Virus record (IMG/VR): IMGVR_UViG_3300007177_000114
Strand: one strand, 5' to 3'
DNA length: 22,868 nt
DNA from: a virus
Lineage: Duplodnaviria; Heunggongvirae; Uroviricota; Caudoviricetes
A program made the translations under genes and the position numbers. Below the pieces are notes generated by a model that was not told where the DNA came from, searched no databases, and saw only the letters and a program-made list of their open reading frames with translations. Below, one piece after another: positions 3,388 to 22,868 of this stretch (positions are counted from its first letter, which is position 1; every line of letters starts with the position of its first letter).

Positions 3388-5010
3388 ATGAAAATTAACG
3401 TAATTAAAAGAGATGGTTCAATTGAACCACTTAATCTAGAAAAATTCCATAGAGTTGTCCGTTGGGCATGTGAAGGTCTTTCTGGAGTATCTGAATCAGA
3501 AGTTGAAATTAAGTCTCAGATTCAGTTTTATGACAAGATCAAAACTTCTGATATCCAGGAAACTTTAATTAAAGCGGCATCAGAACTTATTGATGTGGAT
3601 GCTCCAAATTATCAGTATGTTGCTTCTAGACTTATCAACTATCATCTTCGCAAGCAAGTCTATAATGGACCAAATCCTCATAATCTATTTCAGCATGTAG
3701 TAAATGTTGTTTCAGATGGATATTATGATCAACAAATTCTTTCTCAATATGATGATGAAGAGTTTGCTTATCTTAATAAGCAATTAGATCATGATAGAGA
3801 TTTTACTGTTCCATATGTGGGTATGGAACAATTTCGTGGTAAATATTTAATTAGAAATCGTGCTACAAATAAATATTATGAGACACCTCAGATGGCATTT
3901 ATGCTTATCTCCATGGTTCTTTTTAAAAATTATCCAAAAAGTGAACGTTTAAAATGGGTGAAGGACTTTTATGATGCGGTATCTACATTCGAAATCTCTC
4001 TGCCGACTCCTATCATGGCTGGTCTACGCAGTCCACAGAAGCAATTTAGCTCTTGTGTCCTGGTTGACTCCGATGATTCGCTAGATTCTATTAATGCCAC
4101 AACTTCTGCTATTGTAAAGTATGTCTCACAAAAAGCAGGAATTGGTATTAATGCTGGAAGAATTCGTGCTATTGGTTCACCTATTAGAAATGGTGATGCC
4201 ACTCACACTGGTGTCATTCCTTTCTATAAAATGTTTCAAGCAGCGGTTCGTTCCTGCTCTCAAGGTGGTGTTCGTAACGGCGCCGCAACACTATATTACC
4301 CAATTTGGCACTATGAAGTTGAAGATCTTCTAGTTCTAAAAAACAATAAAGGTGTTGATGAAAACCGAATTCGTCATGTTGATTATGGCGTTCAATTCAA
4401 TAAGCTTATGTATGAACGTCTATTGTCTGGTGGTAATATTACACTATTTTCACCACATGATGTGCCAGGTCTATATAAGGCATTTTTCATCAATTATGAT
4501 GAATTTAAGCGTCTATATGAAGAAGCTGAATCAAATCCAAATATTCGTAAGAAGACTATTTCAGCGCTTACTTTATTTACATCTTTTCTACAAGAAAGAA
4601 AAGATACCGGTAGAATCTATTTGATGAATGTGGATCATGCAAATGATCACGGTGCTTTTATTAAAGAAGAGGCTACAATTTATCAAAGCAATCTGTGTCT
4701 AGCTGGCGATACTTGGCTTACGGTTCAACTTGACAATGGTGATTTAAAAGATATTCAACTACAAGATTTAGTTGAATCTAATAATAATAACTATAAGATT
4801 TTATCACGTAATATTAAAACTGGCGTCGATCAATTTAAGCCTGTTACTGCTAGAGCAAAAACGGGTACAAATAGACATGTCATGAAGATTACAAATGAAA
4901 ATGGTGATAGTATTATTTGCACACCCGAACATAAAATCTATACTAAAAATAGAGGTTACGTTGAAGCAAAAAATCTTCTTCCAACTGATATTTTACAGTC
5001 ACTAAGTTAA
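3388..5010 (+). CDS. nrdA: class Ia ribonucleotide reductase alpha, N-terminal part (aa 1-436) fused to split-intein N-fragment (aa 437-540)
   Basis: ATP-cone (VIKRDG), PTPIMAG, QFSSCVL, QGGVRNG; NrdA stops at YQSNL, followed by intein block A CLAGDT and block B CTPEHKIYT, then a stop. Confidence 0.95.
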   Translation: MKINVIKRDGSIEPLNLEKFHRVVRWACEGLSGVSESEVEIKSQIQFYDKIKTSDIQETLIKAASELIDVDAPNYQYVASRLINYHLRKQVYNGPNPHNLFQHVVNVVSDGYYDQQILSQYDDEEFAYLNKQLDHDRDFTVPYVGMEQFRGKYLIRNRATNKYYETPQMAFMLISMVLFKNYPKSERLKWVKDFYDAVSTFEISLPTPIMAGLRSPQKQFSSCVLVDSDDSLDSINATTSAIVKYVSQKAGIGINAGRIRAIGSPIRNGDATHTGVIPFYKMFQAAVRSCSQGGVRNGAATLYYPIWHYEVEDLLVLKNNKGVDENRIRHVDYGVQFNKLMYERLLSGGNITLFSPHDVPGLYKAFFINYDEFKRLYEEAESNPNIRKKTISALTLFTSFLQERKDTGRIYLMNVDHANDHGAFIKEEATIYQSNLCLAGDTWLTVQLDNGDLKDIQLQDLVESNNNNYKILSRNIKTGVDQFKPVTARAKTGTNRHVMKITNENGDSIICTPEHKIYTKNRGYVEAKNLLPTDILQSLS

Positions 5011-5017
5011 TCTCAAG

Positions 5018-5067
5018 TATAAATACTCCTTGAAATAAACCTACCTATACATTTCAAGGAGTATTTA
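5018..5067 (+). promoter_or_regulatory. T4-type late promoter TATAAATA plus RBS-sequestering hairpin upstream of the endonuclease
   Basis: TATAAATA 5018-5025; perfect 17-bp inverted repeat 5020-5036 / 5051-5067 covering SD AAGGAG (5056-5061); ATG at 5070. Confidence 0.88.
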
Positions 5068-5069
5068 AC

Positions 5070-5789
5070 ATGGCTATAGTCTATAAAATTACAAATAAAG
5101 TAAATGGTAAAATCTATTTTGGGTTAACTACAAGAACTCTTAAACAACGATTTGATAGTCATTTATCAGCTGTCAGACAAGGTAGTAAGTTTAGATTCCA
5201 TAATGCTATAAGAAAATATGGAGTTGATTCTTGGGATCTTGAAGTTGTTGCAGAAAGTGATGATATGGATTTTATTCGTAAAAGGGAAGAAGAATTGATA
5301 TCGGAATATAATACAACAAATAACATGTTTGGCTATAATGCAAAGCCAGGCGGTTGTGGTGGATGGATTGTAAAACCTGAAAATTATGATAAATGGAAAG
5401 AAAATAATAAAGCATCTGTAACGGGTGAAAAAAACGGTAGATTTAACGGCGTAACAAATGCTGAATTATACCAATTAGTAAAAGAGGAATCAATCAAACT
5501 TGGATATATACCATCTTCAAGATATATGATCAAAAATTATTATCCTAAGTTTCCTAAATCATTTAATGATTATAGATTTAATGGTTCCTATAAAAATCTT
5601 GTGGATATCTTACAAAAAGAAATAGATTTGAAGTTTAATCCATATAAAAGAACAGATGAACACATTGAAAAATTAAGTAAAGCAAATTCTGGTAAGAAAT
5701 GGTTTAATAACGACAAAAAAAATTTACAATGCTTTCCAGATCAAGTTCCTGATGGTTTTAAACCTGGTAGATTAAAAAGTAAAGGATAA
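5070..5789 (+). CDS. GIY-YIG homing endonuclease (Seg-like)
   Basis: IVYKITNKVNGKIYFGLT (GIY-YIG variant), conserved R (KQRF), E (EEELI), N (GYN); C-terminal NUMOD-like RTDEHIEKLSKAN and WFNND...GFKPGR. Confidence 0.88.
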   Translation: MAIVYKITNKVNGKIYFGLTTRTLKQRFDSHLSAVRQGSKFRFHNAIRKYGVDSWDLEVVAESDDMDFIRKREEELISEYNTTNNMFGYNAKPGGCGGWIVKPENYDKWKENNKASVTGEKNGRFNGVTNAELYQLVKEESIKLGYIPSSRYMIKNYYPKFPKSFNDYRFNGSYKNLVDILQKEIDLKFNPYKRTDEHIEKLSKANSGKKWFNNDKKNLQCFPDQVPDGFKPGRLKSKG

Positions 5790-5794
5790 TATAA

Positions 5795-6892
5795 ATGTTA
5801 ACAATCGAGTATCTCGATGAAACTATTGATGTATATGACATTACAGTGGAAGATAACCATAATTTCTATGCTAATGGTATTTTGGTTCACAATTGTTCGG
5901 AAATTGATCTTCCAACAAAACCACTAGAACATATTTTTGACCCAGAAGGTGAAATTAGTCTATGTACTCTTGCAGCTATAAATTGGGGAAAAATTCGTGG
6001 AACTTCTGATTTTGAGCGCCCTGCTAGACTTATCGTTCGTGCTCTTGATGAATTACTTGACTATCAGGATTATCCAGTCTTGGCAGCAAAAAACTCTACA
6101 ATGGCAAGACGTCCTCTTGGTGTCGGTATCATTAACTTTGCTTATTGGCTCGCTAAAAATGATCTTACTTATTCTGATATTGGGGTAGAAGGTCTAAAGA
6201 AAGTTCATGAATATGCTGAGGCTTGGTCATATTATCTGATTAAAGCTTCTGCTGATCTTGCCGTAGAAAAAGGTGCGTGTCCGAAATCCCATGAAACTAA
6301 GTATTCACTGGGTATGGTACCTATTGATACTTACAAGAAAAATGTTGACAATCTTGTGGATCCGGTTTATAAATTTGATTGGAACTCTCTGCGAATCCAG
6401 CTATCAGAGTATGGAATTAGAAATTCTACACTGATGGCACTAATGCCGGCAGAAACATCAGCTCAAATCTCCAATTCCACAAATGGGATTGAACCACCTA
6501 GAGCTCTTGTTTCGGTAAAGTCATCTAAGGATGGTATCTTCAAGCAAGTAGTACCTGAAGTTCGTAAACTAAAAAATAAGTATGATCTTCTTTGGGATCA
6601 AAAATCTCCTGAAGGTTATCTACAAATCTGTGCTGTATTACAGAAGTTTATCGACCAAGGTATTTCAGTCAATACTAGTTATAATCCAGAAAATTATCCT
6701 CTTGAAGAAGGTGAAACTGTTCATAAAATTCCTATGTCAGTTCTTCTCAAAGATATCATTCAGTTCTATCAGATGGGTGGTAAGCAATTGTACTACTTTA
6801 ATACATATGATGGTGCTGGTGAACAAGATGTTGTTCCGGAACTAGAACAAAGTATTATTGAAGATCAAGATTGTGATAGTTGCAAAATATGA
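5795..6892 (+). CDS. nrdA: split-intein C-fragment (33 aa) fused to NrdA C-terminal part (332 aa)
   Basis: HN|CSEIDLP, ISLCTLAAINWG, RRPLGVG, LMPAETSAQ, DQGISVN, KQLYY, C-terminal CDSC redox pair; predicted spliced length 768 aa. Confidence 0.95.
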   Translation: MLTIEYLDETIDVYDITVEDNHNFYANGILVHNCSEIDLPTKPLEHIFDPEGEISLCTLAAINWGKIRGTSDFERPARLIVRALDELLDYQDYPVLAAKNSTMARRPLGVGIINFAYWLAKNDLTYSDIGVEGLKKVHEYAEAWSYYLIKASADLAVEKGACPKSHETKYSLGMVPIDTYKKNVDNLVDPVYKFDWNSLRIQLSEYGIRNSTLMALMPAETSAQISNSTNGIEPPRALVSVKSSKDGIFKQVVPEVRKLKNKYDLLWDQKSPEGYLQICAVLQKFIDQGISVNTSYNPENYPLEEGETVHKIPMSVLLKDIIQFYQMGGKQLYYFNTYDGAGEQDVVPELEQSIIEDQDCDSCKI

Positions 6893-8457: not shown

Positions 8458-8489
8458 TATAAGTATGGGGGAAAGGAGATTCCCCCATG
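8458..8489 (+). promoter_or_regulatory. late-promoter-like TATAAGTA plus hairpin over the start codon of the second GIY-YIG gene
   Basis: TATAAGTA 8458-8465 (1 mismatch to TATAAATA); 9-bp stem 8465-8473 / 8480-8488 with SD AGGAGA as loop and ATG (8487) in the stem. Confidence 0.65.
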
Positions 8490-8903
8490 ACTGATTGGCT
8501 TTATTATGATAAACCTATAGATTTAGAAACTCTAGATCAATATATAGGTTTTGTATATCAAATTACAAATCTCTTAAACGATAAGAAATATATCGGAAAG
8601 AAACTGTTAAAATTTAAAAAGACCAAACAACTCAAAGGTAAAAAGAAAAAGATACTGGTAGAGTCAGATTGGCAAGTGTATTATGGATCCAATGAAGCAT
8701 TAAAAAATGATGTGGTAAAATATGGATCAGATAATTTCAAACGTGAAATACTTAGATTCTGTAGAAATAAAGCAGAATTAACTTATTTTGAATTAAAAGA
8801 ACAGATTGTAAGAGGTGTCTTAGAATCTGATAAGTATTATAATTCTTGGATTTACGTGAGAGTTAGAAAAGAACATCTAAAAAAGATTGACTTTTCTGCG
8901 TAA
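8487..8903 (+). CDS. short GIY-YIG-family nuclease of T4-like phages
   Basis: GFVYQITNLLNDKKYIGKK; ESDWQVYYGS; FKREIL; conserved E and YN. Confidence 0.75.
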   Translation: MTDWLYYDKPIDLETLDQYIGFVYQITNLLNDKKYIGKKLLKFKKTKQLKGKKKKILVESDWQVYYGSNEALKNDVVKYGSDNFKREILRFCRNKAELTYFELKEQIVRGVLESDKYYNSWIYVRVRKEHLKKIDFSA

Positions 8904-16306: not shown

Positions 16307-16338
16307 AAAGGGGAAGCAATGCTTCCCCTTACTTTTTT
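16305..16338. terminator. bidirectional intrinsic terminator between convergent blocks
   Basis: 10-bp stem AAGGGGAAGC/GCTTCCCCTT (16308-16330), A-run on the left and T-run on the right. Confidence 0.85.
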
Positions 16339-16775
16339 AGACTACGCTTTAAAGCTTGAAGTTCTTCTTTGGTAAGTTTATTCATAGCACTATTTAATAG
16401 CTTTTTTTCTTCCTGTGCTTCAGCTTTTTTAATTGCTTTTTGAGCTGCTTTTTGTCTTTTTCTTTCTTCAGCTTTATCTAGTTTAATCATTCTATCAATA
16501 TATTCTTGGTCAGTTTCATCTTCTTCCCAACTAAGAAATATATTCATCTCATCATAATAAAGATCTATAGTTAATGTGGCACCATGTTTAAGTTCTGAAA
16601 GATCATCTAAGGTATACGTACCACCATGTAGATCAAGATTACGAGATTTGAAAACTTTAATACGTGGTCTTTTTTGATAATTATCAACGATCAAATCTGT
16701 ATTTGATGTAGAAGTAGATGCTATACATCCACGGTCACGGCAATCCATACGATCACAATCTTTACATTCGTTCAT
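16329..16775 (-). CDS. hypothetical protein with Cys-rich N-terminus and K/E/A-rich helical tail
   Basis: 148-aa ORF; start lies in an ATGA overlap with the upstream mini-ORF. Confidence 0.7.
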   Translation of the reverse strand: MNECKDCDRMDCRDRGCIASTSTSNTDLIVDNYQKRPRIKVFKSRNLDLHGGTYTLDDLSELKHGATLTIDLYYDEMNIFLSWEEDETDQEYIDRMIKLDKAEERKRQKAAQKAIKKAEAQEEKKLLNSAMNKLTKEELQALKRSLKK

Positions 16776-16813
16776 AGTTTTTCTTTTCTAGTTTGATTTC
16801 CGACTTGATTCAT
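16772..16813 (-). CDS. 13-codon mini-ORF MNQVGNQTRKEKL (collapsed Q-repeat unit)
   Basis: ATGA overlaps at both ends; ends EKL-stop like the right-arm repeat genes. Confidence 0.5.
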   Translation of the reverse strand: MNQVGNQTRKEKL

Positions 16814-17001
16814 TTGTATCTTAATTCAATTTCTTGATCCCAGACTTGATCATAGACTTGATCATGGACTTGATTCCAGACTTGATCATGGGCTTGATTC
16901 CAGACTTGGTCCCAGATTTCTATATTGATCTGATCCCAAACTTGATTAAAAATTTGTTTTCGTATCTTTGTCCAAAGATACTGTCTAGATGGATTCATCA
17001 A
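16810..17001 (-). CDS. QVWD tetrapeptide-repeat mini-protein (left-arm copy)
   Basis: ...QIFNQVWDQINIEIWDQVWNQAHDQVWNQVHDQVYDQVWDQ...; same 12-nt CAAGTC-NNN-GAT/AAT unit as the right-end array. Confidence 0.7.
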   Translation of the reverse strand: MMNPSRQYLWTKIRKQIFNQVWDQINIEIWDQVWNQAHDQVWNQVHDQVYDQVWDQEIELRYK

Positions 17002-17030
17002 ATATTAACTTACTTCATATACAATTTTAT

Positions 17031-17058
17031 CTGAGGTTTGCTTCACACCAAACCTCAG
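17031..17058. terminator. 10-bp stem-loop at the end of the ATPase gene (no U-tract on the - strand)
   Basis: CTGAGGTTTG / CAAACCTCAG with 8-nt loop. Confidence 0.45.
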
Positions 17059-17930
17059 TTCTTGCAGCAAGTCACAATGGCACGCTTCATCCAGTTGGAG
17101 TCGCTCTTACGGCGAAGAGCACCAATCTTAAGAGCCATGCGCAGGGAAAGCTCACGAAGACGACCGGCGTTCTTCTCGATGAAGGTCACCACATCAGCCT
17201 GGGCATCATCGCTAAGACCGATGTTCCGCAGCAGACCCTGGCGAACCACCTGACGGATACGGATGAGATAGTCACGCTGGGTCTTCATTGCCAGGTCGAT
17301 ATAGTGAGCTCGGGATACCAGAGCCGAGAGGTGTGGGGCAAGCTTGGAGCCGCGGTCGATCATGGCATCGAAGTCGTAGTTCGTGATGAAGATCACAGTG
17401 CCCTGGAACTCGAAGCTCTTAGGCAGACGCTCGGCCGATTCCTCGTCGATCAGCGTGCCCTCAGTCATATACGAAATGATACGCTTGTCGTTGGTGTCAA
17501 GCGCCGCCTTGAGAAGGGTGATAGCAGTCTCGTCAAGGAACACATCGTCAGCATCGTCAAACACCAGAACGGAGCCGGGAGTACGGTGCTGATAGAGCAG
17601 CTTGAAAAGCGCCGGGGCCTTAACGTAACCCTTGACGATACGGTGAGACGTAGAGTTCGGGTCCCAGGACTCGAGTGCCTTCTCGACCGTGAAACTCTTG
17701 CCGAGACCGGCCGGACCAGACACGATCAGCGCACGAACATCACCGTCGATGGCAGCGTTGGCCATATCAGACAGGATTTCAAAACGGTCCGAGAGCTTCT
17801 GCTCAATCTCTTCGTCCGTCTCGACCACCACAGGCTCCACAGCCTGTGCAACGTTCATGATCTTGGTCACCTTATCGGTCTTGGAAACTCGGGGCTTGCG
17901 ATAGCCATTGCGGGGAACGCCACGGGGCAT
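17055..17930 (-). CDS. P-loop (AAA+-like) ATPase
   Basis: Walker A GPAGLGKS, Walker B VLVFDDAD, sensor-like FITN; AAAGGA SD; GC-rich codons. Confidence 0.85.
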   Translation of the reverse strand: MPRGVPRNGYRKPRVSKTDKVTKIMNVAQAVEPVVVETDEEIEQKLSDRFEILSDMANAAIDGDVRALIVSGPAGLGKSFTVEKALESWDPNSTSHRIVKGYVKAPALFKLLYQHRTPGSVLVFDDADDVFLDETAITLLKAALDTNDKRIISYMTEGTLIDEESAERLPKSFEFQGTVIFITNYDFDAMIDRGSKLAPHLSALVSRAHYIDLAMKTQRDYLIRIRQVVRQGLLRNIGLSDDAQADVVTFIEKNAGRLRELSLRMALKIGALRRKSDSNWMKRAIVTCCKN

Positions 17931-17957
17931 GTCAGTGTCCTTTAAGTTTGTATTTTG

Positions 17958-17986
17958 AACTTAACTCAAGCTTGGATTAAAGTCAA
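17958..17986 (-). promoter_or_regulatory. early promoter for the ATPase
   Basis: GG-TTGACT-TTAATC family, 17 nt, TAAGTT. Confidence 0.6.
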
Positions 17987-17989
17987 CCC

Positions 17990-18115
17990 TTAATCTTCAA
18001 GAGAGTTAAGATATTCTTCGTATTCAGCAAGATCAGCAGCCGTCGGCTCGTAGGCTTCCTCGCAGGAGACCTCGGCGTCAAAGTCATCGAAGGGGTTTGT
18101 GTTGTCATTCATCAT
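17990..18115 (-). CDS. 41-aa very acidic peptide (not in ORF track)
   Basis: MMNDNTNPFDDFDAEVSCEEAYEPTAADLAEYEEYLNSLED: 14 D/E, no K/R/H; own promoter; GC-rich codons like neighbouring early genes. Confidence 0.65.
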   Translation of the reverse strand: MMNDNTNPFDDFDAEVSCEEAYEPTAADLAEYEEYLNSLED

Positions 18116-18121
18116 AGTGTC

Positions 18122-18150
18122 TTTATACCACCTGGTTGGATTAAAGTCAA
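18122..18150 (-). promoter_or_regulatory. leftward early promoter
   Basis: TTGACT, 17 nt, TATAAA on the - strand; inverted copy of the rightward promoter. Confidence 0.8.
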
Positions 18151-18158
18151 CCATGACA

Positions 18159-18521
18159 AATCAATGGGTTAGCCTAATGACCATCTTAACCCATTGAAAA
18201 GATTATAAAAATTTTTTTGAACTTTTTTTGCACCGACTTAGCAATCAGACACATATAGATGCTGCTAGGACGATAAAACCTAATCTTTTCAATGGGTTAG
18301 CTGCTAACAAAAAGTCAATGATATCAATGGGTTAGGTGCTCACATCGTTTTTCGGCAGTCTAAGCCACCCTAGATGGGTTTATCATACCGCCTGGGCCGT
18401 CAAGATCAAAGCTAGCCGGGATCTTGGCTAAGTGGTTGATAAGATTGTATAAAAAATTTTTGTAGTTTTTTTGAAAAAATTTTGCTAATCTTATCAACCA
18501 CTTAGCGCTAACCTATTGATT
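18159..18521. repeat. non-coding array of 7 IHF-consensus sites in nested inverted repeats with A/T tracts
   Basis: WATCAANNNNTTR perfect at 18159(+), 18322(+), 18429(-), 18492(+), 18509(-); one mismatch at 18187(-), 18287(+); perfect IRs 18187-18205/18281-18299 (19 bp) and 18427-18446/18487-18506 (20 bp). Confidence 0.75.
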
Positions 18522-18529
18522 TCCTTGGG

Positions 18530-18558
18530 TTGACTTTTAAACCAGGTTGCGGTATAAA
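18530..18558 (+). promoter_or_regulatory. rightward early promoter
   Basis: TTGACT, 17 nt, TATAAA. Confidence 0.8.
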
Positions 18559-18583
18559 GACACTATGATGAATGAGGTACAAA

Positions 18584-18934
18584 ATGTCTGATTATATTCC
18601 GATTGGTTATATTCAGGTCGACTCTGATAAAGTCATCGCTGCGTGTGATGATTATCTTGAGTGGGTCGACCAGAGATATACTGAAGCAAAGAACGAATAT
18701 ATCGAAAGTATTATTAAAACTAAGCACGGCTTTCTTTGGAATAAGCGCTTCTATACCCGTGAAGAAGCTGAACATATGTGGAAAAACGGCACCGGTGATT
18801 ATCTGTATTCACCGCATCAGCTGCAGACACTTAGGGGAGCAATTACGACCCAACAAGTTAAGGAGCTTCGTATCCTGGCTCTCAACTCTGACAAGGTTAT
18901 CGTGAGTAACAAAATGTCATTCCTTTTTGACTGA
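18584..18934 (+). CDS. hypothetical protein
   Basis: GAGGT SD favours MSDYIP (18584) as start. Confidence 0.7.
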   Translation: MSDYIPIGYIQVDSDKVIAACDDYLEWVDQRYTEAKNEYIESIIKTKHGFLWNKRFYTREEAEHMWKNGTGDYLYSPHQLQTLRGAITTQQVKELRILALNSDKVIVSNKMSFLFD

Positions 18935-18942
18935 TTTTTTGG

Positions 18943-18971
18943 TTGACTTTAATTTCAGATTAGGTTATTGG
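18943..18971 (+). promoter_or_regulatory. possible early promoter
   Basis: GG-TTGACT-TTAAT family -35; weak -10 (TATTGG). Confidence 0.4.
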
Positions 18972-18995
18972 TTTAGTTATAACAAGGAGCTTACC

Positions 18996-19169
18996 ATGAA
19001 CGTTTCCACCGTCCTCTCCCGCATGCACGCCTTTGCCCGTACGACCAAGGATGACGTCGCCTCGAATGAGGTGGCTCGTGTTGCCGATCGTCTGGCCCAT
19101 CAGGGCCCGTTCGAAGCACCGCTGACCGATGCCGAGATTGCTGTTATCTCTCGGTTCGTGTATGCATAA
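18996..19169 (+). CDS. 57-aa hypothetical protein
   Basis: AAGGAG SD before MNVSTVLSR; GC-rich codons begin exactly there. Confidence 0.7.
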   Translation: MNVSTVLSRMHAFARTTKDDVASNEVARVADRLAHQGPFEAPLTDAEIAVISRFVYA

Positions 19170-19174
19170 ACCTA

Positions 19175-19202
19175 TTGACATTTATACTCAACCTGGTATA
19201 AT
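19175..19202 (+). promoter_or_regulatory. early promoter sharing its -10/leader with the primase promoter
   Basis: TTGACA, 16 nt ending TGG, TATAAT; 19195-19225 is 29/31 identical to 63-93. Confidence 0.8.
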
Positions 19203-19235
19203 GGTTAGTGACCAAATAATGATGGTATAGGTAAT

Positions 19236-19418
19236 ATGTATCTAGTAAGTTTTACTAACTTTGGTTATACCAAAGACTTTGCTACCAAGGAACAGGCTCA
19301 AATCTATATGGAAAGGGCATGCTTAGAGTCTGTTCTTATGACTACGAAGGGTGAAATCCTTGGTGGATTCTCTCCCATCTCTGGATCACAAAAAATGGTT
19401 GACTTTAATCTCGACTAG
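19236..19418 (+). CDS. 60-aa hypothetical protein
   Basis: ORF directly behind the promoter, AGGT SD. Confidence 0.6.
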   Translation: MYLVSFTNFGYTKDFATKEQAQIYMERACLESVLMTTKGEILGGFSPISGSQKMVDFNLD

Positions 19419-19426
19419 GTTATAAT
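19399..19426 (+). promoter_or_regulatory. early promoter for DUF932
   Basis: GG-TTGACT-TTAATC, 16 nt, TATAAT. Confidence 0.75.
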
Positions 19427-19458
19427 CCTACTATCATAACAAATCAGGAGACTTAAAA

Positions 19459-20412
19459 GTGGCTCACAATATCGAAATGATCAACGGCAAGGCTCAGATG
19501 GCATATGTCGGCGAGACTCCCTGGCATGGTCTGGGTGTTTCTGTTCCTGCTGATCTGACTCCCGAACAGATGCTCGAGGCGGCCGGTCTCAACTGGGAAG
19601 TGGAGAAGATCAAGGCATATGCCAAGGTCGGTGGCAAGAATGTCGATGTTGGCCGTTCTGCTCTTGTCCGCAAGATGGACAATAAGATTCTAGATATCGT
19701 CTCGAACGATTGGAATCCGGTGCAGAATACCGAAGCGTTTGAATTCTTCAACGACTTCATTGCCGAGGGTGACATGGAGATGCATACAGCCGGTTCTCTG
19801 GCTGATGGTCAGATTGTCTGGGCCCTGGCCAAGATCAAGGATGGGTTTGATCTGTTTGGTGGCGATGAAGTGGAATCGTATCTCCACTTTACCAACTTCC
19901 ACAAGTATGGTTTCTCCACTGACGTGCGGTTCACTCCGATCCGTGTGGTCTGCAACAACACGCTGACTCTATCCCTTAACACCAAGGTCGAGCGCTTTGT
20001 TAAGATTAGTCACCGTCGTGAGTTCAACGGTGACAATGTCAAGCTAATGCTTGACATCGCCCAGGAGAAGCTTGCCAAGTACAAGGAAATGGCTGCGTTC
20101 CTTGGTACCAAGCGCTACACCGACGAGAATATGGTCGACTACTTCAAGCGTGTGTTCCCTGTCTCTGGTGGACCGGATGCTAAGAAGGAACTTAGCAAGA
20201 ACGCTAAGGTTGCTCTGTCCGTAGTTGATACTCAGCCTGGTGCAGACTTTGCTCGTGGCACTTTCTGGCAGCTGTTCAACACGGTGACCTACACCGCCGA
20301 CCATCTGATGGGTCGCACCCAGGACTCTCGTCTGACGTCTGCTTGGTACGGCAACGGCCGTAATATGAAGACCAAGGCGCTTGAGACTGCCATCGAAATG
20401 GCAAACGCTTAA
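19459..20412 (+). CDS. DUF932 (TIGR03299-like) phage/plasmid protein
   Basis: MAY.GETPWHGLG, VQNTEAFEFF, TAGSL..G..VWALA, TPIRVVCNNTL, GT.W..FN.VT; AGGAG SD, GTG start. Confidence 0.88.
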   Translation: MAHNIEMINGKAQMAYVGETPWHGLGVSVPADLTPEQMLEAAGLNWEVEKIKAYAKVGGKNVDVGRSALVRKMDNKILDIVSNDWNPVQNTEAFEFFNDFIAEGDMEMHTAGSLADGQIVWALAKIKDGFDLFGGDEVESYLHFTNFHKYGFSTDVRFTPIRVVCNNTLTLSLNTKVERFVKISHRREFNGDNVKLMLDIAQEKLAKYKEMAAFLGTKRYTDENMVDYFKRVFPVSGGPDAKKELSKNAKVALSVVDTQPGADFARGTFWQLFNTVTYTADHLMGRTQDSRLTSAWYGNGRNMKTKALETAIEMANA

Positions 20413-20421
20413 AAATAACGG

Positions 20422-20449
20422 TTGACAAACTCCTAGATTGATATATAAC
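20422..20449 (+). promoter_or_regulatory. early promoter for the DUF6745 pair
   Basis: GG-TTGACA, 16 nt, TATAAC. Confidence 0.6.
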
Positions 20450-20480
20450 TAATCTATCAAATAACAGAAAGGACTTAACA

Positions 20481-20834
20481 ATGAAGACTTTTACTAAGAT
20501 GGCTGCTCAGGGTGACTTCATTATCCTGCGTATCCCTTCCATTCCTGCCAATGTGGAACGTGTCCGGCCAGACAATAGTGGCCATATTGTGGTTGCTCAT
20601 TCTGAAACTGGCCATGATCACGTGATGGTTGCCGATCGTGTTGAGGCTTATAAGCCAGCTGGTGTAAAGGAGGCTGATCTCTACGAGCTTTTCCTTTCCG
20701 TCTCTGCGCCTACTGAGATCAACCACCTTCGTACCTTTGATACTCATGAAACTCTGCTTGTCCCACCTGGTGATTATATGGTACGACGTCAGCGTGAATA
20801 TGTTGCCGAGGGATTCCGTCGAGCTCAGGACTAA
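20481..20834 (+). CDS. His-motif protein of the type usually adjacent to DUF6745 genes
   Basis: AQGD, VAHSETGHDH, H..TFDTH, PPGDY.VRRQREY; AAAGGA SD. Confidence 0.75.
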   Translation: MKTFTKMAAQGDFIILRIPSIPANVERVRPDNSGHIVVAHSETGHDHVMVADRVEAYKPAGVKEADLYELFLSVSAPTEINHLRTFDTHETLLVPPGDYMVRRQREYVAEGFRRAQD

Positions 20835-20894
20835 GAGCTCAGAGCTAAAGTTTAGCTAAACTCAAGTTTATCACATAGTAAAGGTAGTTATATT

Positions 20895-21740
20895 ATGAAG
20901 AAGATCGACAAGCTGACTCCGGAACAAGAAGCTCAGCTCGAGGTTTATCGTGACAAGTGGATCAAGATCGGACTCTCCACCGAGCGTGTAGATCATGATG
21001 CGGCACGTGCAGCCGTAGAACTTCTCTATAAGTGTGGTGGACTTGAGCCGCCCAAGATGATTCTATTTGCTAACGGACCCAAGCATGCCAAGAAGCTTCT
21101 TGGTGATCGGTCAGTGATAGAGAGTTGTGTGTATGGTTCTCATGAGGCTGCTTGGCTTAGCTTCTATGACTATATGCAAAATGTTCTTGGTATTGACTTC
21201 GGTGGTAAGCTTGATGGCCTCTGGGCTGTTGCAAAGAATTGTGGTTGGGTATCCTGCTACGATACACTAGCCATTATCCAGGATCGTCCTCTACACATCA
21301 AGATGGATGAGGACAATCGACTGCACTGCGAGAATGGTCCTGCCATTCTCTATGATGATGGGTTTGCGGTCTATGCTTGGCATGGTGTTCGCATCCCCGG
21401 TGAGTGGATCACAAACAAGAGCTCCCTGACTCCTCAGATTGCTCTTACCTGGGAAAACATGGAACAGCGCCGGGCCGCTTGTGAAATCCTAGGTTGGGTT
21501 CACATCCTCAACAAACTTAATGCCAAAGTGCTGGATACCGATCCAGATCCTCAGATCGGCACCCTTGTTGAGGTTGATATTCCGGAGATTGGTAAGGAGC
21601 GCTTCATCCGTGTTCTGTGTGGAACAGGCCGTGAGTTTGCTATCCCGGTGCCACCTAATATGAAGACGGCTCTGGAAGCAAATGCTTGGACATATGACAT
21701 TGACCCTGACCTTCTCAAAACTCTGGAAGTCCGGACTTAG
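20895..21740 (+). CDS. DUF6745-like protein lacking an internal tetrapeptide repeat
   Basis: KIDKLTPEQEA...WIKIGLST; YGSHEAAWLSFYDY; CGW; RLHCENGPAI...DGFAVYAWHGVRIP; EQRRAACEILGW. Confidence 0.75.
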   Translation: MKKIDKLTPEQEAQLEVYRDKWIKIGLSTERVDHDAARAAVELLYKCGGLEPPKMILFANGPKHAKKLLGDRSVIESCVYGSHEAAWLSFYDYMQNVLGIDFGGKLDGLWAVAKNCGWVSCYDTLAIIQDRPLHIKMDEDNRLHCENGPAILYDDGFAVYAWHGVRIPGEWITNKSSLTPQIALTWENMEQRRAACEILGWVHILNKLNAKVLDTDPDPQIGTLVEVDIPEIGKERFIRVLCGTGREFAIPVPPNMKTALEANAWTYDIDPDLLKTLEVRT

Positions 21741-21756
21741 TTCCGGACTTTTTTTT
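21727..21756 (+). terminator. intrinsic terminator
   Basis: 9-bp stem AAGTCCGGA/TCCGGACTT, 6-nt loop, T8 run. Confidence 0.85.
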
Positions 21757-21778
21757 CTTTAATTAAGAAAATAGTATA

Positions 21779-21952
21779 ATGTTTTCTGTTGTTATTAAAC
21801 AAATTCGAAATATGCCTTGGGGTCAAATTTCTGATCAAACTCTAGCTCAAGTAGATGATCAAAGTAGAGATCAGATTTGGAAACAAGTCCGAGATCAAAT
21901 TCCAACTCAAGTCTTGGAGCAAACTCTAATTGAGTTTTTTAGTCAAAGATAA
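21779..21952 (+). CDS. Q-repeat mini-gene 1 (57 aa, degenerate; not in ORF track)
   Basis: MFSVVIKQIRNMPWGQISDQTLAQVDDQSRDQIWKQVRDQIPTQVLEQTL...; Q every 4th residue. Confidence 0.6.
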   Translation: MFSVVIKQIRNMPWGQISDQTLAQVDDQSRDQIWKQVRDQIPTQVLEQTLIEFFSQR

Positions 21953-21961
21953 GATAAATCC

Positions 21962-22192
21962 ATGAACGTAGTCAATCAACTTAAGGCCCAAGTCAATAGT
22001 CAAAATATAACTAAAGTTCTGGATCAAGTTCGAGATCAAATTTTAGATCAAATTTTGCCTCGTATGTGGGGTAAAGTTGATATTAAAGTCGTGGCTTGCA
22101 TATGGGACCAAATTGATGATCAAATTATGCCTCAAATTTTAAATCAATCATGGGATCAAATTCAGATACAAGTTTCGGAAGAAAATCTATGA
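21962..22192 (+). CDS. Q-repeat mini-gene 2 (76 aa)
   Basis: DQVRDQILDQIL...WDQIDDQIMPQILNQSWDQ; ends VSEENL-stop with ATGA overlap. Confidence 0.7.
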   Translation: MNVVNQLKAQVNSQNITKVLDQVRDQILDQILPRMWGKVDIKVVACIWDQIDDQIMPQILNQSWDQIQIQVSEENL

Positions 22193-22440
22193 ACTTAAAA
22201 AATAAAGTATTTCATGAAATACATACCAAGATATTTGATTATGTCTTTAAGAAAGAATTCAATATTATTGAATTACACTTGTGGCACAAGATGTATAATC
22301 AAGTCACTCGTCAAATTGATGATTTAATAACAGATCATGTACACGATTTTATTGCATCGCAATTTATTGCATCGCAATTTTTACACTTAGAATATGATAC
22401 CGAACTAGTCTCCGGAGAGAAAAGCTATGAGAGTAGTTAG
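22189..22440 (+). CDS. Q-repeat mini-gene 3 (83 aa, most degenerate)
   Basis: starts in the ATGA overlap (MNLKNK); YNQVTRQIDD; exact 15-nt duplication 22348-22377; terminal motif out of frame. Confidence 0.55.
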   Translation: MNLKNKVFHEIHTKIFDYVFKKEFNIIELHLWHKMYNQVTRQIDDLITDHVHDFIASQFIASQFLHLEYDTELVSGEKSYESS

Positions 22441-22609
22441 TCAAATTCAACATAGTACTTTGAATAATGTTAAAAATCAACTTTATGGTCAAATCTGGAA
22501 TCAAGCCTGGGATCAAGTCCATAATCAAATCTGGATTCAAATCTGGAATCAAGTCCTGGATCAAGTCCTGGATCAAGTCCATGATCAAGTCTGGGAGGAA
22601 AAGCTATGA
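22427..22609 (+). CDS. Q-repeat mini-gene 4 (60 aa)
   Basis: QIWNQAWDQVHNQIWIQIWNQVLDQVLDQVHDQVWEEKL; GGAG SD. Confidence 0.72.
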   Translation: MRVVSQIQHSTLNNVKNQLYGQIWNQAWDQVHNQIWIQIWNQVLDQVLDQVHDQVWEEKL

Positions 22610-22836
22610 ACACTAGTGTCCAAGTCTGGAATCAAGTCCTGAATCAAGTCTGGAATCAAGTCCATAATCAAATCTGGAATCAAGTCCGTAGTCAAGTCTG
22701 GGTTCAAATCTGGAATCAAGTCCGTAGTCAAGTCCAGGATCAAGTCCAGGATCAAGTCCGTAGTCAAGTCTGGGTTCAAATCTGGAATCAAGTCCGTAGT
22801 CAAGTCAGGGATCAAGTCTGGGAGGAAAAGCTGTGA
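22606..22836 (+). CDS. Q-repeat mini-gene 5 (76 aa)
   Basis: near-pure Q-[VI]-x-x repeat; GGAGG SD 7 nt before ATG; ends VWEEKL. Confidence 0.72.
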   Translation: MNTSVQVWNQVLNQVWNQVHNQIWNQVRSQVWVQIWNQVRSQVQDQVQDQVRSQVWVQIWNQVRSQVRDQVWEEKL

Positions 22837-22868
22837 TCACTAGTGTTCAAGTCTGGAATCAAGTCCGG
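22833..22868 (+). CDS. Q-repeat mini-gene 6 (partial, runs off the window)
   Basis: GTGA overlap and GGAGG SD; (M)ITSVQVWNQVR... Confidence 0.65.
   Translation, partial: MITSVQVWNQVR

Follow-up and report, generated by a model that had tools for sequence, protein, structure and literature searches.

Coupled tetrapeptide-repeat mini-genes beside a tract-less DUF6745 gene in a freshwater T4-like phage: a probable trans form of the DUF6745 repeat tract

Why does a phage carry a head-to-tail series of very small open reading frames (ORFs) built on a single tetrapeptide pattern, and with what would their products interact? The question is raised by the 3' end of a 22,868-nt stretch of DNA (IMG/VR record IMGVR_UViG_3300007177_000114; in the following, the window) from an uncultured freshwater T4-like phage. 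Genes for ThyX, a class I ribonucleotide reductase, PhoH, and a T4-type RNase H are present, and the nearest cultured relatives, at about 51% RNase H identity, are Methylophilales phage Melnitz and T4-like cyanophages. Cultured phages gave no useful megablast match to the array region or to the first 12 kb. The large subunit of the ribonucleotide reductase is encoded in two ORFs (window 3388-6892), with matches to intein splicing domains at the end of the first and the start of the second and a free-standing GIY-YIG endonuclease gene (5070-5789) between them; the arrangement resembles a split intein with a homing endonuclease inside it. Between nrdB and an RNase H-like gene lies a GIY-YIG homing endonuclease gene of the SegE type (8487-8903).

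The array lies 3' of an intrinsic-terminator-like hairpin with a T-run (21725-21752, plus strand), which encloses the stop codon of a DUF6745 gene and stands between this gene and the array. The array comprises five complete ORFs (57-83 codons) and the beginning of a sixth, head to tail on the plus strand: U1 (21779-21952, 57 aa), consisting of degenerate Q-[I/V/T]-x-x tetrads; U2 (21962-22192, 76 aa); U3 (22189-22440, 83 aa), in which Gln is mostly gone; U4 (22427-22609, 60 aa), with a C-terminal WEEKL; U5 (22606-22836, 76 aa), with Q-[V/I]-x-x in 17 of its 18 tetrads; and the GTG start of unit 6 (22833-22868). A 12-nt period with 27.8 copies is detected at 22489-22821 by Tandem Repeats Finder, which, together with the ORF listing, agrees with the initial annotation of this DNA: 57-83 aa ORFs, arranged head to tail after a terminator, with a 12-nt/4-aa period. 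No sigma-70-like promoter was found just upstream of U1. A TATAAT at 21773-21778 was considered and rejected, since it abuts the ATG and cannot serve the U1 start.

Neighboring units are linked by a recurrent junction motif, GGGAGGAAAAGCTRTGA (22593-22609, plus strand), in which GGAGG is followed after 7 nt by an ATG overlapping a TGA. Four copies were found against 0.06 expected, two of them exact (the second at 22820-22836) and two with three mismatches each (22176-22192 and 22414-22430). Three of the four Shine-Dalgarno (SD)-like junctions show a stop-start overlap, namely ATGA between U2 and U3 and between U4 and U5, and GTGA between U5 and unit 6, while U3 and U4 overlap by 14 nt and not by ATGA. 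U1 and U2 are separated by a gap of 9 nt without an SD motif. The proposal that a single motif with overlapping stop and start joins all units from U2 on is thus borne out for the motif and for three overlaps, with U3/U4 as the exception. An exact search of IMG/VR with the junction motif retrieved no stretches.

The extent of the array is visible on an 89.8-kb metagenome contig (L001) that is identical to the last 2 kb of the window (window position = L001 position + 12605). On this contig, unit 6 reaches a stop after 22 codons, with a degenerate 92-codon ORF in another frame, and the array ends at about window-equivalent position 23121, some 250 bp beyond the window. Because the identical contig shows its end, the array can be described as six units plus a decayed tail. 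The earlier expectation that the array runs on past the window is not borne out beyond this short tail, as the sixth unit is broken and the end is close by. Beyond it follow unrelated small genes, then a 381-aa gene, gp59, and gp32. A dispersed seventh mini-gene with QVWD tetrads (16810-17001, minus strand, 63 aa) is found 4 kb upstream of the array. It lies directly upstream of a gene for a 148-aa protein (minus strand, region 16329-17001), which gives a sub-threshold match to the SocA/Panacea antitoxin domain (E 0.0028, 19 bits versus a cut-off of 25.7).

The units are real genes, and several observations support protein-level constraint on them as well as coupling from U2 on. In the degenerate units U1-U3 the Q-V frame alone is open, with ORFs in other frames not exceeding 37 aa; in the near-perfect U4-U5 several frames are open, owing to the repeat itself. 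Each unit keeps the tetrad register, with Q followed by a hydrophobic residue, without a break: Gln occupies the first position in 10/13, 12/18, 3/20, 11/14, and 17/18 tetrads of U1-U5, respectively, and a hydrophobic residue the second position in 9/13, 16/18, 15/20, 12/14, and 17/18. When residues were shuffled, this register was never matched for U1, U2, U4, and U5 (p<=5e-5) and once in 20,000 shuffles for U3 (p<=1e-4). Codons at the second position are varied (ATT, GTT, GTC, GTA, ATA, CTT, TTA, and others), and so it is the class of residue that is kept and not the DNA. These data sustain the earlier argument for protein-level selection in the degenerate units. A four-residue period of Gln followed by V/I/L is found in U1, U2, U4, and U5. 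The accompanying statement, Gln at every fourth position with a hydrophobic residue next, fits U1 and U2; U3, for which it was made only locally, has three Gln and keeps the hydrophobic period alone. U3 also contains a perfect 15-nt duplication (22348-22380, 2.2 copies) encoding FIASQ twice, at which the tetrad register is shifted by one residue. Pfam searches gave no match of the mini-proteins to PF20530, and matches of the units to DUF4816, TBPIP, and others stayed below the cut-off and were judged low-complexity noise; a PHROGs search gave weak matches alone. Clusters of look-alike proteins (56-79 aa) in the ESM Atlas have tens to hundreds of members each and are 100% viral among the members with a taxon record.

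The gene upstream of the terminator (20895-21740, plus strand) encodes a 281-aa DUF6745 protein (PF20530, E 1.3e-34) with 1272 relatives at E<=1e-5. Like its close relatives, it has no internal tetrapeptide tract and shows instead a short variable loop at residues about 70-80. In other members of the family a tract is present: database matches of U5 include P0008 and P0009, two N-terminal fragments in which a DUF6745-type N-terminus runs straight into QVxx repeats and in which, by alignment, the tract begins where the window protein has its loop. U5 shares 58% identity (E 2e-19) with the internal tract of the PF20530-positive locus L009. On these sequence comparisons, the mini-proteins are homologous to the internal tract of DUF6745. 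Members differ in their tracts: the DUF6745 relative gp174 of Microcystis phage Ma-LMM01 is recorded without a tetrad tract, and a siphovirus from Manatee Spring (L211, MW202476.1; 1880-3157) encodes a tract-bearing DUF6745 with about 30 S-S-L-x tetrads (x = G/R/E/W), specified by GC-rich (AGCAGCCTCNNG)n. The possibility that SSLx tracts are the same repeat DNA read in another frame was rejected on the DNA itself. As (AGCAGCCTCNNG)n differs from the 12-nt array DNA, the same kind of tetrad is here obtained from unrelated DNA.

The DUF6745 monomer is predicted as a compact alpha/beta protein (AlphaFold2, pLDDT 91.8, pTM 0.79). No clear structural match was obtained for this model with Foldseek in the PDB or in AFDB Swiss-Prot (best E 0.33 in each) or with VIA-align wide (best Z 4.4 over 54 residues, rmsd 3.0), and no mention of DUF6745 was found in the literature searched. 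In an alignment of 20 tract-bearing sequences with the tract-less window protein, P132, H144, and D155 are invariant and H163, D138, G164, and R192 nearly so; the P132/H144/D155/H163 region (residues 132-163) hints at a possible metal-binding or catalytic site. A Cys-His-Asp enzyme was also considered and rejected, as tract-bearing members do not conserve C242.

How regularly the two layouts, split and fused, occur was followed in two surveys of IMG/VR. With a degenerate 12-nt-period pattern, 120 loci were collected. The tract lies inside a DUF6745 ORF, with 7-62 tetrads and no further mini-ORF, in 24 loci; tract-less DUF6745 with mini-ORFs was seen in 4, mini-ORFs alone in 75, and of the remaining 17, 8 carry the tract within a long ORF that is not DUF6745 and 9 lack a five-tetrad tract in all frames. 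The reverse survey started from 80 loci with tract-less DUF6745 at 42-84% identity, which fall into 47 clusters at 90% identity; mini-ORFs are present in 34 of these clusters. Their density is 1.55/kb within 0.5 kb of the tract-less gene, 1.17/kb at 0.5-1 kb, and about 0.13/kb at more than 1.5 kb, and 165 of 172 mini-ORFs share the strand of DUF6745. Mini-ORFs are thus tightly adjacent to tract-less DUF6745 genes, and mini-genes and tract-bearing DUF6745 are mutually exclusive. Judging from these loci, the split layout is conserved across a wide clade.

Structure predictions are in line with such a relationship. AlphaFold2 models U5 as one helix of 74 residues (residues 2-75, pLDDT 92.9), and the comparison of tracts agrees with the earlier view of the units as helices that would differ mainly at two variable positions per tetrad: in 234 distinct tracts beside tract-less DUF6745, W, R, S, and Y make up most of position 3, and D and N most of position 4. 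The right-handed coiled coil proposed along with this view finds no backing. Known right-handed coiled coils have a hydrophobic period of 3.67 or 3.75, and the heptad one of 3.5; since the strict period of 4.0 is further from 3.6 than 3.67 or 3.75, and since the AlphaFold2 helix is single and straight, a classical coiled coil is unlikely. For a complex of DUF6745 with U5 a score of 0.79 was obtained, versus 0.00 for the best of three controls; this mark is reached by 51 of 78 solved complexes and by 2 of 108 mismatched pairs. Contacts agree between runs to at least 88%, with a partner pLDDT of at least 74. From residue 16 on, all 28 Q and V/I residues of U5 are placed in the predicted interface, compared with 14 of 30 variable positions (p 2e-6), and position 4 is the most exposed (4 of 17 in predicted contact). 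The predicted contact residues of DUF6745 are 3-27, 44-50, 62-106, and 121-166, of which residues 62-94 would flank the site of tract insertion; interface residues are not enriched in conserved positions, and no similar solved complex is known. The predicted helix also touches residues 135-166, near the invariant cluster. The complex score expresses model confidence, and the model may echo an arrangement learned from fused DUF6745 sequences; the docking result is therefore read as consistency with the fused form and not as binding.

Taken together, we consider it probable, with some reserve, that the coupled small genes are a trans form of the DUF6745 tract whose products dock on the upstream tract-less DUF6745 protein. 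Each unit would encode one long alpha-helix of Q-[V/I]-x-x tetrads, a free-standing version of the tract that many phage DUF6745 proteins carry internally. Such helices would dock via their invariant Q-V face beside the loop that holds the tract in fused forms, and many residues at the variable positions, above all at position 4, would stay exposed. Because the upstream gene is tract-less and the mini-proteins correspond to its detached tract, the phage's own DUF6745 protein is the likely binding partner. A second candidate partner of DUF6745 is a 117-aa protein (20481-20834, plus strand; phrog_27831, no Pfam family), a homologue of which (116-117 aa) adjoins DUF6745 in all relatives examined (L002-L004, L006, and L007/L008), also where mini-genes are absent. 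Behind the end of the 117-aa gene, at window 20820, the GAGCTCAGRACTAA tandem repeat is longer by one 14-nt copy in a contig from run X1, so that its length differs between strains.

The mini-proteins might instead act alone, as amphipathic helices that associate with themselves or bind targets (decoys or binders of host proteins), their adjacency to DUF6745 reflecting common descent from the tract. This reading, which we regard as unlikely, draws on 27 of the 75 mini-only loci, in which at least 2 kb are visible on both sides and no DUF6745 occurs within 2 kb; the survey profile was, however, built from one clade and may miss distant DUF6745 in such loci. The dispersed copy, 4 kb away and on the other strand, points the same way, as does the third position, which is rich in W, R, S, and Y, amino acids characteristic of binding surfaces. 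The GC content of the array (0.36, backbone-like) also differs from that of DUF6745 (0.49), and for this reason the two may have different histories. Independent action is opposed by the clustering of mini-ORFs, on the DUF6745 strand, at up to 1 kb from tract-less genes, with none beside tract-bearing ones, and by a predicted docking in which precisely the invariant residues take part.

A nearly neutral, coding-looking satellite, in which tract DNA expelled from DUF6745 by recombination decays as a by-product, was weighed against the turnover of the array among relatives. In two loci with a 94% identical DUF6745 (L002, L003), three different units with other termini are found, and in one with 81% identity (L004) there are about seven, some beyond a neighboring gene; overlapping stop-start junctions recur in these relatives. 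Window and L002 are collinear, with 88% identity up to 21756 and 87% from window-equivalent position 23966, and the array between is not alignable. More distant relatives (L006, 67% DUF6745 identity; L007/L008, 63%) are tract-less and have no mini-gene next to DUF6745. Among strains, a variant from run X1, represented by one contig of low depth, has about 10 listed differences within the 174 nt of U1 versus 4 in about 520 nt of DUF6745; a 1-nt deletion at 21935 gives the end of its U1 an ATGA overlap with U2. Metagenome DNA contigs are fragmented over U4-U5. By these comparisons, the array changes far faster than its flanks, apparently through duplication and loss of whole units and 12-nt repeats, and relatives differ in both units and unit number, as anticipated when the locus was first called a gene accordion. 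Decay could account for the truncated or frameshifted unit 6, the degeneration of U1-U3, the relatives without an array, and the several open frames of U4-U5, which the repeat DNA keeps open by itself. It is nonetheless a poor candidate: every lineage has re-formed a start, an SD-like motif, and an overlapping stop from different sequences, the sole open frame of the degenerate units is the Q-V frame, the period-4 hydrophobic pattern outlives the loss of Gln, and arrays occur in 34 of 47 lineages over a DUF6745 identity of 42-84%. In close relatives the ORF layout is intact. A role of the 12-nt repeats as DNA (protein-binding iterons, a recombination hot spot, or a replication element) with incidental ORFs, suggested by the near-perfect periodicity of U4-U5 and by clustered IHF-like sites elsewhere in this genome, is highly improbable, as the GC-rich (AGCAGCCTCNNG)n tract encodes, in different DNA, a tetrad of the same type (polar, hydrophobic, variable, small) at the corresponding site, degenerate units retain the protein pattern and lose the DNA repeat, and mini-ORFs are co-oriented with DUF6745.

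Returning to the trans form of the tract, its possible role is approached through the surroundings of the gene. The AAA-like (phrog_1250, minus strand), DUF932, 117-aa, and DUF6745 genes form a GC island (17000-21740, 49-56% GC) in a phage of 33% GC. Sigma-70 consensus promoters at 19175-19202 and 19399-19426 (12/12 and 11/12) precede a 60-aa ORF and DUF932, and five of the window's seven IHF-consensus sites are located within 363 bp (18159-18521) between divergently oriented genes. Early expression of the DUF932-DUF6745 block is plausible. A PADLOC search gave no match for U5, DUF6745, the 117-aa protein, DUF932, the AAA-like protein, or the 148-aa protein. By analogy and from this context, the locus could serve an early-expressed, fast-evolving recognition function in phage-host conflict, e.g. 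counter-defence. Several units made together would yield several alternative DUF6745-helix complexes. We put forward only tentatively the further idea of a two-part variable recognition system, in which a conserved DUF6745 body would be combined with swappable helical specificity subunits whose exposed W/R/S/Y-rich residues are diversified by 12-nt slippage and unit duplication.

DUF6745 is a large viral family without a known fold match, and the locus offers an explicit predicted interface, that of the DUF6745 body with interchangeable helices. If correct, the proposed docking would explain why two tetrad positions are fixed and two are free (an invariant dock, with many of the variable residues exposed), link the split and fused forms of DUF6745, and, alongside gp54 of mycobacteriophage Tweety, add a mechanism by which repeats diversify an accessory function of phages rapidly. 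A two-part system of the tentative kind described above, if real, would stand beside diversity-generating retroelements and cassette switching as their repeat-driven equivalent, one that many phages would turn against host defences.

The mini-gene array is real, widespread, and undescribed in the literature searched, and its affinities to known systems are of different kinds. The internal tract of DUF6745 proteins in phages and prophages has the same Q-V-x-x tetrad, varies in copy number among the 24 IMG/VR genes of the survey, and is located at the loop beside which the model places the docked mini-protein. What distinguishes the array from this fused form is that the tract is present as six to seven separate coupled mini-genes outside the DUF6745 polypeptide, which allows several variants to be produced together. 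Pentapeptide-repeat proteins (Qnr, MfpA type) have a period of 5 and a beta-helix fold. They share with the array short tandem peptide repeats with fixed and variable positions, whereas the array has a period of 4, a predicted alpha-helix, and no Pfam pentapeptide match. According to PMC2884959, variable region 2 of bbp36 in Bordetella phage BMP-1 is likewise a tandem-repeat coding segment, with a 24-bp unit in one non-essential gene and a copy number that differs between isolates. Gp54 of mycobacteriophage Tweety (also Che8 gp57 and PMC gp51) is a tunable tetrapeptide-repeat counter-defence protein with 48 A-A-x-x tetrads (A-A-[G/W/Q]-[S/Y]) in a 12-nt/4-aa repeat; changes in repeat number lead to escape from the Phrann gp29/gp30 defence, the number differs among related phages, and the gene appears dispensable, being missing in one related phage (PMC2884959, PMC9262239). 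Gp54 and the array have in common two fixed and two variable tetrad positions and a copy number that varies between relatives, but the gp54 repeat lies inside one protein between two domains, and its invariant residues differ from those of the array. Gp54 has no Pfam match, and its hhalign probability against the DUF6745 profile is 0.12%. Gp54 is the nearest described system, an analogue of the array and not its homologue.
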